DNA of 43,982 nucleotides from a virus: UHGV virus genome UHGV-0179801; one strand, given 5' to 3'. Made by a program: the position numbers and the translations under genes. Position 1 is the stretch's first letter. Each line of letters starts with the position of its first letter. Below, piece after piece: positions 4,475-40,510 of this stretch. The notes under the pieces were generated by a model. That model had not been told where the DNA came from and ran no database searches. It saw only the letters and a program-made list of their open reading frames with translations.

Positions 4475-4793
4475 GTTTCTCCTTTCTCGATAAGTAAAGC
4501 CCCGCCATAAAGCGGGGCGCTAGTCCTTATCATTTAAACATAGAAACGGCGTAATCTCAGTAAACCAGTTACTTTTTACACAAGCAATAGATTATGGCCC
4601 TTCCGAACGCGTCAGCGTAACTACACTCAGGACTTACGTCCCGCTCCGTTACCTGCCCGCGCCGCGGTCGCTTGTTCATACTTCACAAGCTCAGGTGGAG
4701 CTTAGCACATTTTTAGTGAAAAGTCAACTATTCGAATAGTTTATTCCAAGATTTACAATTCGGTGGAATAACTGGGATACCTAACCAAATAGT

Positions 4794-4822
4794 TTGCACA
4801 CACCAATATAATAGGGTACTAT
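4794..4822 (+). promoter_or_regulatory. sigma70-like promoter TTGCAC-N17-TACTAT with AATAG-N4-CTATT inverted repeat
   Basis: Conserved 25-nt block caccaatataatagggtactattca (4801-4825), near-identical at 6608 and 40231, followed by the conserved leader tcgaaacgaggaga and an ATG. Confidence 0.55.
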
Positions 4823-4850
4823 TCATTACATCGAAACGAGGAGATGAAAA

Positions 4851-5024
4851 ATGTTCAAAGAAAAAGACATAATGCACGAAAACGGCAAATACTGGGTTCT
4901 AAATGATAAAGGAGTGTACTGCGTAATGATTTCCGGGTTTACCCACGCTAAAGCTGATAGTGCATACGCTAGTTTAGATTTAGCGATAGCCCGCTGTGAT
5001 TATCTGGCGAGTAGAGACGCATAA
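4851..5024 (+). CDS. small moron protein (57 aa), hypothetical
   Basis: ATG 4851 after the conserved promoter/leader (gaggagatgaaaaATG); opposite strand to the flanking late genes; followed by a terminator hairpin. Confidence 0.5.
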   Translation: MFKEKDIMHENGKYWVLNDKGVYCVMISGFTHAKADSAYASLDLAIARCDYLASRDA

Positions 5025-5027
5025 ACT

Positions 5028-5050
5028 AAGGCCCCGTAATGGGGCCTTTT
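5028..5050 (+). terminator. rho-independent terminator (AAGGCCCC-gtaat-GGGGCCTT-TT)
   Basis: Perfect 8-bp GC-rich stem, 5-nt loop, T-run; member of a conserved hairpin family recurring at 7183, 30767 and 42010. Confidence 0.6.
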
Positions 5051-5051
5051 A

Positions 5052-6600: not shown

Positions 6601-6629
6601 TTGCAGACACCAATATAATAGGGTACTAT
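6601..6629 (+). promoter_or_regulatory. sigma70-like promoter TTGCAG-N17-TACTAT (conserved family)
   Basis: Same 25-nt block as at 4801 and 40231, followed by the conserved leader tcgaaacgaggagatgagaaATG. Confidence 0.55.
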
Positions 6630-6656
6630 TCAGTTATCGAAACGAGGAGATGAGAA

Positions 6657-16848: not shown

Positions 16849-16879
16849 CTTCTGTCTCTCCTCTCGTTTGTGCAAATGA

Positions 16880-16908
16880 ATAGTAACCTATTCTATCCCA
16901 GTGAGCAA
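16880..16908 (-). promoter_or_regulatory. sigma70-like promoter TTGCTC-N17-TACTAT (minus strand) with AATAG-N4-CTATT repeat
   Basis: Minus-sense reads TTGCTC-17 nt-TACTAT then the conserved leader and an ATG; inverted repeat at 16879-16892. Confidence 0.5.
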
Positions 16909-17804: not shown

Positions 17805-18023
17805 TTATTTAAAGTAGATAGCGAATTTCTTGTAACCCGCAGGCTCGTTACGAAGCCCTTTACCATTAGCGAAACGTTGTACGTTGTTAAAATCATTTTC
17901 ATCCATTCCGTCGGTGTCGAACGTAAAGAAGTTGCGTTTGTTCCTGATAATTACGCGCTCTGAAATATCGATACCGTAAACTTCTTTGATTGCTGAAACT
18001 ACGCTTGCAGTCGCTTTGTTCAT
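17805..18023 (-). CDS. hypothetical protein (72 aa), first gene of the leftward block
   Basis: ATG 18023 with AAGGAA RBS, about 35 nt downstream of the conserved promoter. Confidence 0.5.
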   Translation of the reverse strand: MNKATASVVSAIKEVYGIDISERVIIRNKRNFFTFDTDGMDENDFNNVQRFANGKGLRNEPAGYKKFAIYFK

Positions 18024-18056
18024 CTTTAAATTCCTTATGTCTCGTTGCTATAAGTG

Positions 18057-18086
18057 AATAGTATCCTATTATATTGGTGTGTGCAA
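18057..18086 (-). promoter_or_regulatory. sigma70-like promoter TTGCAC-N17-TACTAT (minus strand)
   Basis: Reverse complement of 18054-18086 is ttgcacacaccaatataataggatactattcac, the same conserved block as at 4794, 6601 and 40223. Confidence 0.55.
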
Positions 18087-18455
18087 GAGAGTAGTTACGC
18101 TGCCGTTGTGATTCTTCAGGTAGGGTTGTGCCTTTATTCTTATTACTTGGTAACTAAAGGGCAGGCCTTAAGCCTGCCCGGTAAGGGTTACATTTTTACG
18201 GTTGCGAATCTACGGCACTTTAATAAAATCAGATACTTAAGAGATATGCCGCCGATGAAAATAGAGCTTGCCCAGGGCAACCGGAGATACTTAGAAAGGA
18301 AAGTTACGATAATTCTTGTGTTCAGTAAACTTTCGCTTAACCCTTTGCTTAACGCACGGTTTAAGCGGTTTTACAAGGTGAACAAGAATCAAAGTAACTA
18401 AGATATAGAAGCACCTTAAACGAAGATTTTCATAATGTCAATAGGTGTGATTATG

Positions 18456-18484
18456 TTTGATTTCCCATTATTCGCAATGTATAC
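18456..18484 (+). promoter_or_regulatory. candidate sigma70 promoter TTGATT-N17-TATACT for the rightward replication operon
   Basis: Hexamers with 17-nt spacing about 35 nt upstream of the first rightward gene, at the end of a ~430-bp non-coding region. Confidence 0.4.
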
Positions 18485-18517
18485 TCGATTTTGTTAACTG
18501 ATAATGAGGGTTTGAGA

Positions 18518-18688
18518 ATGACACAGAATGAAGTAGCCGAGCGTATCGGTGTTACTCGTCGCACGCTGAATAACTGGTTAAAGAGTGGGAAGTTCCCTGA
18601 TTGTTGTATTCGCATTATGGGCCGCCGTCAGCCAGGTACGTTTGACCGGGAGAAAGTGGAAGCGTGGATTAAGGAGAACGTGAAATGA
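18518..18688 (+). CDS. AlpA/excisionase-like HTH DNA-binding protein (56 aa)
   Basis: EVAERIGVTRRTLNNWLKSGKFP resembles the AlpA-type helix-turn-helix; ATG 18518 with GAGGG RBS (track start 18491 is a TTG). Confidence 0.5.
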   Translation: MTQNEVAERIGVTRRTLNNWLKSGKFPDCCIRIMGRRQPGTFDREKVEAWIKENVK

Positions 18689-18918
18689 CCGAGTTTCAGT
18701 CACGGGTATTTACGGCGGTCGTTTCGTTAACGCATAAAAAAGGGTCGTGCAGCGTTATGGACTTGCGCCGTAGTTATTTTAGGTACTATAGTTCCGCCAT
18801 TATTGAAGGGTCGTTACGTGTACTGGTTAAATCTGGTGTCGTGAAAAACGTTGGCGGGAAATATAGTGCCGTTGCCGAAGTTCGCGGAATGACATCTACT
18901 TTAGAAGACCTGGAATAA
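18685..18918 (+). CDS. hypothetical protein (77 aa)
   Basis: Track ORF; ATGA coupling to the upstream gene. Confidence 0.5.
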   Translation: MTEFQSRVFTAVVSLTHKKGSCSVMDLRRSYFRYYSSAIIEGSLRVLVKSGVVKNVGGKYSAVAEVRGMTSTLEDLE

Positions 18919-18976
18919 AAGAAAGCCCCGACGCGGTGAACGCCGAGGCCAAATTACTTGCTGAAGGAATTATAAT

Positions 18977-21815: not shown

Positions 21816-21840
21816 TGTGAATAGTACCATATTAATTATT
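21816..21840 (-). promoter_or_regulatory. promoter/operator for the XRE gene (TGnTACTAT extended -10, degenerate AATAG-N4-ATATT repeat)
   Basis: Minus-sense aattaatatggTACTATtcac about 25 nt upstream of the XRE start; shares the tgaatagt core with the other promoters. Confidence 0.45.
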
Positions 21841-21853
21841 TTAGAAAAGCCCA

Positions 21854-21882
21854 TTGACATCATGAATAGTTCGCTATTATAG
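21854..21882 (+). promoter_or_regulatory. sigma70-like promoter TTGACA-N15/17-TATTAT/TTATAG with AATAG-TTCG-CTATT repeat
   Basis: Consensus -35 TTGACA; inverted repeat 21865-21878 overlaps the -10; followed by leader ccaaacgagaggagagacaaaATG. Confidence 0.55.
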
Positions 21883-24421: not shown

Positions 24422-24447
24422 TTGACACCTGAATAGTTAGCTATTAT
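24422..24447 (+). promoter_or_regulatory. sigma70-like promoter TTGACA-N14/17-TATTAT/TATATT with AATAG-TTAG-CTATT repeat
   Basis: gttgacacctgaatagttagctattatattc upstream of the SSB-like gene. Confidence 0.55.
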
Positions 24448-40115: not shown

Positions 40116-40222
40116 TCTTTGATCCTTTGGTTAAGAGGTTACAGGTTAAGGGAAATGCGCCAGACGGGAACCACCCGCTTTTCGTGTGCGACACTAGGCG
40201 CAAACTTATTCTAGCACACTAC

Positions 40223-40251
40223 TTGCACACCCCAATATAATAGGGTACTAT
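40223..40251 (+). promoter_or_regulatory. sigma70-like promoter TTGCAC-N17-TACTAT (conserved family)
   Basis: acttgcacaccccaatataatagggtactattca, the same block as at 4794 and 6601. Confidence 0.55.
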
Positions 40252-40281
40252 TCACTTACACCAACAATGGAGGAGTTTAAA

Positions 40282-40473
40282 ATGTCAAGTTTACCAGTTT
40301 CCTTAATTCTGTTTGCACTACTCGCTTATTTTGCGCCTTTCCTGGTTGCATATTTCCGCAACCATAAAGCGAAGTTAGCGATATTCATGGCTAACCTGTT
40401 TCTTGGCTGGATTCTGCTGCCGTGGGTATTTATTTTAATCTGGGCTTGCAACTCGAATGTCAAAGAGAAGTGA
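40282..40473 (+). CDS. small membrane protein (63 aa)
   Basis: ATG 40282 after GGAGGAG RBS; two hydrophobic helices (LPVSLILFALLAYFAPFLVAYF, LFLGWILLPWVFILIWA). Confidence 0.5.
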   Translation: MSSLPVSLILFALLAYFAPFLVAYFRNHKAKLAIFMANLFLGWILLPWVFILIWACNSNVKEK

Positions 40474-40510
40474 GCTAGTATAGGACAAATCCTAAGCACG
40501 AGGAATAAGC

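Follow-up and report, generated by a model that had tools for sequence, protein, structure and literature searches.

Short terminated transcripts are well known from phage lambda, in the form of the pR'-6S RNA-tR' unit and of the oop RNA, and the RNA II / RNA I system of ColE1 is built on a structured pre-primer transcript that starts at a promoter upstream of the origin. Phage HK022 reportedly carries another kind of early RNA, put, which the work of King and Weisberg is said to have described as a cis-acting antiterminator made of two stem-loops of ~30 nt (~70 nt in all) and found in both early operons. Bacterial promoters can also be bidirectional, through a symmetric -10 element, as was reportedly described by Warman et al. 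in 2021. In the Ceduovirus phages, the origins occupy non-coding DNA that separates divergently transcribed gene blocks, with the first two early promoters, PE1 and PE2, on either side; there is no open reading frame (ORF) or ribosome-binding site after PE1, and the non-coding PE1-T transcript is thought to start replication (PMC7150918). Three unrelated types of Ceduovirus origin (c2, bIL67 and 923) have been described, each of them more than 90% conserved internally (PMC7150918). Here, we examine a region of comparable layout in the UHGV virus genome UHGV-0179801, whose 43,982 nucleotides, analysed as a whole, are referred to as the window. This region is an intergenic gap of ~495 bp (18024-18517) that separates two divergent gene blocks. 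A structured RNA unit is likely to be made from its minus strand, and the reading that explains it best, which we hold tentatively and with less than even confidence, is that of a structured early leader or non-coding RNA that would control or insulate leftward transcription.

The region and its flanks are 90-93% identical to those of Escherichia phages CR01, M01 and UTEC10 and of many other Kagunavirus genomes, and they show a more distant similarity to Salmonella Jerseyvirus genomes, both genera belonging to the subfamily Guernseyvirinae. The gap is bordered by the ATG of the first leftward gene at 18023 and by that of a helix-turn-helix (HTH) gene at 18518; the genes left of the former are transcribed leftward and those from the latter on are transcribed rightward. 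The first-pass annotation of this DNA had placed a non-coding region at 18087-18517, which is real, but the gap is wider and extends down to 18024.

The predicted leftward early promoter, P_L, is followed by a predicted non-coding transcript of ~255 nt and, further on, by a second promoter of the same orientation, P_L2. As for the lambda 6S and oop RNAs, a short non-coding RNA would be made from a constitutive promoter and stopped, ahead of an operon, by an intrinsic terminator; unlike 6S, the P_L RNA is far more structured and conserved and it is allelic, and no Q-like protein or qut site was identified. With put, it has in common a structured nascent RNA located after an early promoter and before a terminator, a covarying shape and the lack of an N-like protein, whereas it differs by its single 98-nt hairpin with a conserved tail, by its presence on the leftward side only, and by the second promoter after the terminator. 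The two adjacent stem-loops of both early operons, through which a put element acts on RNA polymerase, were not found, the 26-nt leader of the rightward promoter P_R being devoid of structure, and Rfam, which has no put family, gives no access to put homology. The likeness to ColE1 resides in variable stem-loops that define specificity and in a possible overlapping convergent transcript, but no G-rich hybrid segment of the RNase H type is found here, the context is that of a phage, and antisense transcription is unproven. As in Ceduovirus, the divergent blocks of a virulent siphophage are separated by ~0.5 kb of non-coding DNA; this DNA has two promoters of like orientation (predicted ones here) at its ends, with no ORF or ribosome-binding site after the first, and it exists in several unrelated sequence types, each conserved within itself (here alleles A to D). 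The two systems have no sequence homology, and an origin function would be attributed to this gap by analogy only. The RNA motif and the cassette that carries it are new but of a known general kind, that of phage early leaders, non-coding RNAs or origin transcripts.

A predicted early promoter and its probable structured transcript

Three sigma70-type promoters (P_R, P_L and P_L2; Table 1) are predicted in the gap, and in an alignment of 27 distinct copies, on which promoter conservation was judged, their hexamers and spacing are fixed while the sequences of their spacers drift. This agrees with the regulatory sites that had been suspected from the sequence, and the candidate promoter that had been proposed at 18456 is indeed P_R, whose hexamers are invariant around a variable spacer. 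P_L, the repeated palindromic promoter, the probable grouping of the hairpins in one minus-strand transcription unit and the mosaic character of the region had not been recognised in the first-pass annotation. P_R is predicted to start near 18492, leaving a 26-nt leader with the ribosome-binding site GAGGG (18506-18510) of the HTH gene. P_L is back to back with it, the two -35 boxes being 15 bp apart, and its predicted start is near 18406. The -35 box of P_L, a perfect TTGACA, is invariant, its -10 box reads TAAGGT in Kagunavirus or TAAGTT in Jerseyvirus, and its spacer keeps its 17 nt through 6-7 substitutions between the genera; P_L is therefore a predicted sigma70 promoter, in the sense of two hexamers 16-18 nt apart that are kept while the spacer varies. 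The GenBank records of AG11 and SETP3 also annotate a minus-strand promoter at the equivalent place, immediately before the HTH gene. No gene lies directly behind P_L, and ~320 nt of non-coding DNA separate it from P_L2, which is built around the palindromic motif TGAATAGTATCCTATTAT (18055-18072) and which has the first leftward gene and its ribosome-binding site ~30 nt downstream. The minus-strand ORFs of 30-33 amino acids (aa) that follow P_L have no ribosome-binding site, and their frames are broken by indels between the genera.

The irregular hairpin that opens the transcript begins 5-7 nt past the predicted start of P_L. Its helices are P1 (AGUUAC:GUAACU), P2, P3 (UGUUCA:UGAACA), P4 (GUAAA:UUUAC), a conserved CCUU bulge standing between P3 and P4, and P5, a variable apical hairpin at 18334-18367. 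An inverted repeat GCTTAA-N8-TTAAGC had been noticed near this tip; it does exist, at 18347-18366, but the pairing kept in the relatives is instead that of CGCTTAACCC (18334-18343) with GGTTTAAGCG (18358-18367). A folding scan, as had been suggested with the first-pass annotation, finds a strong fold on the minus strand, both for the whole predicted transcript (z = -4.73 for 18150-18406) and for the hairpin (z = -5.8 for 18298-18403), 0 of 200 shuffles being as stable in either case; on the plus strand, the z of the hairpin is -3.62 versus -5.82 on the minus strand.

This fold is kept in the relatives. The 18 pairs of the lower stem are standard pairs in all of the 558 cells that they form with 31 distinct sequences, compared to 26-51% pairing in slid controls, and their covariation score of 0.151 (0.076 in shuffles) is reached by none of 500 shuffles. 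Over the whole RNA, 98.9% of the structure is paired, and again 0 of 500 shuffles reach its covariation score. In 35 distinct sequences, pairs 1 and 2 of P3 swap U-A and G-C between the genera, pair 5 of P4 is seen as A-U, G-C and U-A, hence as three Watson-Crick types, pair 3 of P4 is seen as A-U, G.U and G-C, and all 385 cells of P3 and P4 are paired on the minus strand. At least five unrelated sequence types of P5 occur, and the hairpin is kept in all of them, with stepwise compensation within types (CGCUUAA/UUAAGCG versus UGUUUAA/UUAAACA; CCGC/GCGG versus CUGC/GCAG). In these alignments, the shape of the hairpin is shown to be maintained by compensatory mutations, its tip being free to vary.

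Several signals point to the minus strand as the transcribed one, because the stability of P3-P5, the pattern of G.U pairs, the RNAalifold result and the position of P_L all agree. Of 23 variants of the inner domain (P3-P5), 21 fold more stably as the minus strand; the mean advantage is 4.2 kcal/mol, that of most Jerseyvirus copies 6-9 kcal/mol, and the architecture on this strand is the same in both genera. In addition, reading the plus strand would turn 15 G.U pairs of P4, and one of the Jersey-type P5, into A.C mismatches, and it is only on the minus strand that RNAalifold finds the hairpin. The strand signal is clear only for the inner domain and for P3/P4: over the full 106-nt hairpin, the minimum free energy and the strand-specific G.U counts did not separate the strands.

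The plus strand has nevertheless its own arguments, which lead to the possibility of convergent transcription: the palindromic promoter would also fire rightward from ~18080, and the resulting RNA through 18090-18230 would be the antisense partner of the P_L RNA or a long 5' leader of the HTH operon. The promoter scan does find, in the plus-strand reading of the P_L2 DNA, TTGCTA (18045-18050), 16 nt and TATTAT (18067-18072), with a predicted start near 18080, and the motif in the same orientation precedes plus-strand genes at 21863 and 24430. Three one-off substitutions in 18095-18220 give G.U pairs only on the plus strand (an A>G change in the GC stem of L005, GGTTC in four Jersey phages and ACGGT in L128), the hairpin module of the Jersey phages has GNRA loops (GTAA, GCAA, GCGA) only when it is read on that strand, and the RNAalifold energy of 18085-18225 is slightly better there (-60.5 versus -56.8 kcal/mol). 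However, the consensus fold of the plus strand misses the covarying hairpin, P4 and P5 have A.C mismatches on that strand, allele A has no plus-strand terminator, and the plus-strand -35 box is poor in most relatives (TTTCGA). We thus consider this improbable as an explanation of the locus, with which the minus-strand leader would in any case be compatible; convergent transcription from the palindromic promoter could produce an antisense pair across the shared hairpin. A further plus-strand promoter candidate, at 18202-18229, was rejected, its -10 box starting with G in most relatives.

At the other end of the predicted transcript, a perfect 8-bp GC stem had been located at 18157-18177. The stem is there, 2 nt away from these positions, and it is formed at 18159-18179 by GGGCAGGC (18159-18166) and GCCTGCCC (18172-18179), closed by GUAAC (18191-18187) paired to GUUAC (18154-18150). 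On the minus strand it resembles an intrinsic terminator, with a stem of 8-9 bp, 7 GC pairs, a loop of 3-5 nt and one further loop-closing U·G pair, followed by the tail UUUAGUUACC (18158-18149), whose UUUAGUU is invariant in 24 sequences and which has 5 U in 8 positions, interrupted by AG; no U tract follows the hairpin on the plus strand. The eight stem pairs keep standard pairing in 23-24 of the 24 sequences (A1 and A4), with a compensatory change of one pair from C-G to U-A in four of them. This predicted terminator is ~65 nt upstream of P_L2. In SETP3-type Jerseyviruses, the module is replaced by a GC hairpin without U tract, and in K1ind2-type Kagunaviruses by another module, AGAGUAC..GGGUGGGC..GUACUCU followed by UUUU, with the U run on the minus strand. 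We read the GC hairpin as a partial terminator, either an attenuator or an insulator, that would end the ~255-nt RNA, and only as a partial one because its U tract is weak and the module of some relatives has none. That the P_L RNA ends or is attenuated at 18159-18179 is rather probable. A small RNA had been among the early suggestions for this region, and the support that it receives is comparative only: a conserved P_L, a covarying minus-strand hairpin and a terminator-like hairpin ~255 nt downstream.

In the explanation that we prefer, the host sigma70 RNA polymerase would bind the back-to-back P_L and P_R and would start at P_L immediately on infection, while rightward expression of the HTH, 77-aa and replication genes would depend on P_R. 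Over its first ~100 nt, the P_L transcript would fold into the long hairpin, followed by the sequence-conserved stretch and then by the GC hairpin and its UUUAGUU. Most P_L transcripts would stop there, so that the leftward genes would be insulated from a strong early promoter and driven mainly by the regulated palindromic P_L2. A fraction of the transcripts may read through, as the weak U tract and the hairpin modules without U tract of some relatives suggest, in which case the element would act as an attenuator. Like a put or nut site, the hairpin and the central sequence would serve as a platform by which the stability of the RNA or the efficiency of termination is set. We put the chance that transcriptional control or insulation is the main role of the unit at somewhat below even.

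Several points weigh against this explanation. The P_L start, the end of the transcript and its termination are predictions from sequence; the -10 box of P_L, TAAGGT, matches the consensus at only 3 of 6 positions (T1, A2 and T6), and the U tract UUUAGUU is weak. P_L2 makes a P_L leader unnecessary for the expression of the leftward genes, and an insulator role leaves the very high conservation of 18180-18300 unexplained. The covariation amounts to few independent events, mostly along the Kagunavirus/Jerseyvirus split. Over the full 106 nt, the Jersey sequences fold slightly better on the plus strand, in a fold that is not conserved (it is broken in L054, L141, L187 and L189), the three single events of the left part (18095-18225) favour plus-strand pairing, and the palindromic promoter could fire rightward too. 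Finally, allele B is weakly structured (z = -2.4 and -1.9).

Table 1. Features of the intergenic gap and of its surroundings (window coordinates)
Feature	Position	Strand	Description
P_L2, proximal promoter of the first leftward gene	18045-18086	-	TTGCAC 18086-18081, 17 nt, TACTAT 18063-18058
GCTGCCGTTGTGATTC	18099-18114	.	Complementary to 18206-18218
Terminator module	18150-18191	-	8-bp GC stem, closing helix and U-rich tail; terminator scan
Predicted non-coding P_L transcript, ~255 nt	18150-18406	-	Predicted from promoter, hairpin and terminator
Central conserved domain	18192-18301	-	~90% identical between genera
Irregular 98-nt hairpin, five helices	18302-18399	-	5' end of predicted P_L transcript
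P_L, predicted leftward early promoter	18413-18441	-	TTGACA 18441-18436, 17 nt, TAAGGT 18418-18413
P_R	18457-18517	+	TTGATT 18457-18462, 17 nt, TATACT 18480-18485; promoter scan and alignment
HTH gene	18518-18688	+	Cassette part
77-aa gene	18685-18918	+	Cassette part
Boundary hairpin	18924-18950		Between the 77-aa and primase-helicase genes
Palindromic motif TGAATAGTAnCCTATTAT, copies	4808-4825(-), 6615-6632(-), 16877-16894(+), 18055-18072(+), 21818-21835(+), 21863-21880(+), 24430-24447(+), 40237-40254(-)		

Coding status of the gap

The gap is judged to encode no protein, because the 115-aa ORF at 18054..18401 is intact in only 4 of 27 distinct relatives. The equivalent ORF is annotated as a hypothetical protein in phage CR01, and the frame is open in the window and in L001, L064 and L137, so one may ask whether it is a real gene. 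It is interrupted by stops or frameshifts in the other 23 relatives, even though the Kagunavirus copies remain ~90% identical in DNA, and the length differences among relatives are not multiples of three. The ORF has no PHROG match, and its GTG start is inside the promoter motif, without the ribosome-binding site whose absence had already been noted. We therefore rejected this ORF as a gene, a status that we find extremely improbable, and the non-coding character that had first been ascribed to the region holds. The AT-rich stretches that had been mentioned there are found as well, the GC content being 0.30-0.37 around 18300-18500.

The first leftward gene (17805-18023, minus strand) encodes a 72-aa protein that matches PHROG 7673, 'internal head protein' (E = 9e-27). 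This gene stands at the head of a block of small early-type genes, and in some relatives it is replaced by an unrelated gene (phiWAO78-1 gp58).

The conserved centre, small RNAs and DNA-level sites

Between the long hairpin and the terminator module, the central domain contains AGATACTTA twice (at 18231 and 18285), a small hairpin, TTGCCCAGGGCAA, at 18268-18280, and a linker that is pyrimidine-rich on the RNA, UUUCCUUUCUAAGUAUCU. Its predicted helices show one-sided changes only, all of them G.U on the minus strand, as expected for a structure predicted on that strand, with no double changes; the fold of 18192-18301 is thus unproven, because only one-sided changes are seen. Left of the GC hairpin, GTGCCTTTATTC (18128-18139) is, like GCTGCCGTTGTGATTC, complementary to 18206-18218; both pairings are predicted on the plus strand, and both of their sides are almost invariant, which leaves no covariation to test.

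A terminated RNA of ~255 nt could also act in trans, by pairing with host or phage mRNAs or by sequestering a protein, through the single-stranded pyrimidine-rich linker UUUCCUUCCUAAGUAUCU or through the variable apical loop. A strong promoter and a terminator without an ORF are the classic anatomy of a small RNA gene, the conserved linker resembles an anti-Shine-Dalgarno sequence, and the hairpin has a hypervariable tip that recalls the specificity loops of antisense RNAs. Against this, no complementary target of the linker was found in the window, nor any notable complement to the rest of the RNA elsewhere in it; when the region was compared with the window by short-word BLAST, nothing but noise was obtained besides the decamer described below. 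No homologue of the region was found in 5,426 Escherichia coli genomes, a search that did not extend to short host targets, and the relatives without U tract would release no discrete RNA. A trans-acting small RNA is, on these grounds, quite unlikely.

The searches for known RNA families, among which an Rfam covariance-model scan had been proposed from the start, were negative. No family gave a convincing match at gathering or permissive thresholds, with 0 matches at the gathering threshold in the whole window and in five relatives including other alleles. The best sub-threshold match, Hrs12, was rejected: it reached 22.5 bits for a threshold of 70 and was driven by the terminator hairpin alone. 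No tRNA or tmRNA was found either.

Another way to account for the region is to dispense with a functional RNA and to see in its inverted repeats DNA-level elements, that is protein sites or primase ssi hairpins such as those of RSF1010. Conserved words do recur there, namely TGCCGT..GATTC (three copies), AGTTAC (4 copies in ~310 bp) and the two copies of AGATACTTA, and the cassette co-varies with two small proteins of DNA-binding type. The decamer GCTGCCGTTG, which is contained in GCTGCCGTTGTGATTC, is moreover enriched across the genome. Yet G.U variation on one strand and the free replacement of the tip fit a folded single strand and not duplex sites, the long hairpin lies right next to a promoter start, and a U tract follows the GC stem. 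The repeats are overall not above chance, and AGTTAC, with 33 copies genome-wide versus 21 expected, is not strongly enriched. A purely DNA-level element therefore seems very unlikely to us.

As for the decamer itself, it is the most frequent 10-mer of the window, with 7 exact copies (239, 1110, 4309, 7891, 14864, 18099 and 39230) and 24 copies at no more than one mismatch (17 of them with one mismatch), versus 3.9 +/- 2.0 in shuffles. The copies occur in both orientations, mostly inside genes and without extended context, and one of them lies in the gap.

The palindromic promoter motif

The motif TGAATAGTATCCTATTAT has 8 copies in the window for 0.01 expected (Table 1), and at 5 of the 8 the side of the minus-strand reading leads, after ~30 nt, to a gene that has a ribosome-binding site; P_L2 shares this arrangement with the other copies located where gene orientation diverges. 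Its core palindrome provides a -10-like hexamer on each strand. The motif is found at the examined points of orientation divergence (4808, 6615, 18055 and 40237) and ahead of rightward operons. Its role may be that of a bidirectional promoter, or of an operator lodged in the spacer of a promoter and bound by a phage regulator, for which the neighbouring MerR-like HTH_17 protein is a candidate. As in bidirectional bacterial promoters, the palindrome AATAGTAnCCTATT puts a -10-like hexamer on each strand (TACTAT and TATTAT), but here the two hexamers are adjacent and do not overlap; conservation over 18 nt suggests that a phage regulator also binds the spacer. The same consensus has been published as a repeated 'phage promoter' (PHIRE) of the Kagunavirus fBC-Eco01 (PMC9825357), where the repeated promoters are ascribed to a phage-encoded RNA polymerase (PMC9825357). 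No gene for such a polymerase was noticed in the annotated parts of the window, in which no dedicated search for it was made.

Two other gaps, 4475-5051 and 40116-40510, have no ORF of at least 90 aa on the gene-bearing strand and contain one copy of the motif each; they may be further non-coding control regions. In the gap near 40200, a hairpin GTGTGC..GCACAC lies downstream of the palindromic motif.

A swappable cassette and the question of the origin

The first-pass annotation had stated that a lack of conservation in related phages would speak against a function of this region. On the contrary, a distant BLAST against 50,697 phage records finds homologues of the gap in 447 of them, with matches only in Guernseyvirinae-type phages of enterobacteria, and 18075-18255 is the best-conserved stretch of the neighbourhood, with 85-92% identity between Kagunavirus and Jerseyvirus compared to only 48-72% for the primase-helicase gene. 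In a pattern scan of IMG/VR, a 14-mer gave mostly chance matches, and a 33-nt pattern worked.

The rightward genes encode a 56-aa HTH_17 protein, which matches the Pfam family above its curated cut-off, a 77-aa protein of unknown family and a 755-aa primase-helicase. K1ind2-like Kagunaviruses have a primase-helicase that is 97% identical to that of the window, yet they share only 18038-18116 of the gap: in place of 18117-18918 they carry unrelated DNA, in which a non-coding part of similar total length is accompanied by a diverged HTH gene and another small gene, and from the hairpin 18924-18950 on the sequences are similar again. There are at least four unrelated alleles (A to D), the Kagunavirus copies within allele A being ~90% identical. 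Every allele comes with a P_R and a leftward TTGACA or TTGACT promoter of its own, the latter located at the same place in B and C. In the other alleles the parts also follow one another in the same order, from P_R and P_L through the hairpins to a GC-hairpin module whose U tract is on the minus strand. The statement that all alleles have the same architecture holds for this order of promoters and hairpins, and not for their overall foldedness. These comparisons show that the gap and the two small protein genes are a swappable cassette.

The right-hand recombination boundary of this cassette is marked by the hairpin 18924-18950, which has a U tract on the minus strand (GGCCTCGGCGTTCACCGCGTCGGGGCT followed by TTCTTTTATT) and at which leftward (antisense) transcription would be halted. 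The gap is longer (620-894 bp) in some Jerseyviruses, such as L005 (PVP-SE2; 738-1631) and L007 (AG11; 983-1602), where it holds a supplementary GC hairpin, whose loops are of the GNRA type when read on the plus strand (GTAA, GCAA, GCGA), and a duplicated GTGCCTTTCTATTCTT element beside their copy of the palindromic promoter.

A replication origin had also been suggested for the region from its sequence. The main rival of the leader explanation is a transcription-dependent origin of the c2 type, in which the P_L transcript or its synthesis would activate or prime replication in cis, the hairpin and the conserved centre being recognised by the replication machinery or by the small DNA-binding proteins of the cassette. 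The layout, with P_L and P_L2 flanking the non-coding region, is that of Ceduovirus (PMC7150918), and the existence of at least four unrelated alleles, each ~90% conserved and co-inherited with two small proteins, would fit an origin, as would the vicinity of the HTH, 77-aa and primase-helicase genes and a nucleotide conservation that goes beyond what structure alone needs. The cumulative GC skew also has its minimum at ~18000, but this minimum coincides with the switch in gene orientation, by which it is equally explained. The analogy is not sustained by any sequence similarity to lactococcal phages, and the P_L RNA is C-rich and not G-rich (the GC skew of the plus strand being positive), which is unfavourable for a persistent RNA-DNA hybrid. 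On plasmids, c2 origins need no phage protein, whereas the present phage codes for a primase-helicase of its own and for the two small proteins of the cassette. Natural hybrids with a swapped 3' hairpin module also exist here (L132, L147, L183, L192 and L179), whereas chimeric c2 origins are reported to be non-functional (PMC7150918). In view of both sides, we regard a c2-type origin as possible but rather unlikely. The same doubtful standing applies to an extended form of it, in which the allele-specific structured P_L RNA would act with the co-inherited HTH and 77/91-aa proteins; if so, the unrelated alleles would be interchangeable modules of replicon specificity.

An origin could also be betrayed by iterons, but the gap holds none and no repeated words above chance. 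An array of at least 3-4 initiator-binding words was not found in any allele, and the repeated 8-10-mers are mostly scattered two-copy words, apart from the stem arms and the two copies of AGATACTTA. At k = 8, allele A has 9 repeated words versus 4.4 in shuffles, the other alleles being at shuffle level, and at k = 9-10 all four alleles are at or below it. A cluster of TGTTCACC, which we take to be the P4-type iteron word, was considered and rejected: there is a single copy in the gap, with 4 in the window versus 1.45 expected, and this copy lies inside stem P3, where Jerseyvirus reads TGTTTCACC, so that it is not conserved.

A replication terminator was likewise considered. With GTTGTAACTA assumed to be the core of Tus-Ter sites, the sequence TTGGTAACTAAAG at 18146-18159 was rejected as such a site: its right half matches at 10 of 10 positions, but there is no match in its GTTG part. 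At 18146-18159, GTAACTAAAG is identical to the right half of the TerB core of E. coli, and the resemblance is probably a coincidence that arises from the AGUUAC/GUAACU stems. GTAACTAA recurs at 18394 (18393-18401).

Significance for the Guernseyvirinae

Phages of the Guernseyvirinae count among those isolated most frequently for the therapy and biocontrol of E. coli and Salmonella, and they are also coming into use as small chassis for synthetic biology. In the literature that we searched, no description of their early regulation and replication origin was found, and this locus is not described in work on the transcriptomes, origins and intergenic regions of Jerseyvirus, Kagunavirus and Guernseyvirinae. 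The analysis marks the likeliest early transcription starts in both directions, and it indicates that the 'hypothetical protein' annotated in some of these genomes is not a gene. It also defines a structured RNA motif, backed by covariation and absent from Rfam. If the origin reading were true, transcription-dependent origins of the c2 type would reach beyond lactococcal phages. Finally, the whole control region, including two small proteins, is exchanged as a cassette, which matters for the engineering, the rebooting and the minimising of these genomes.

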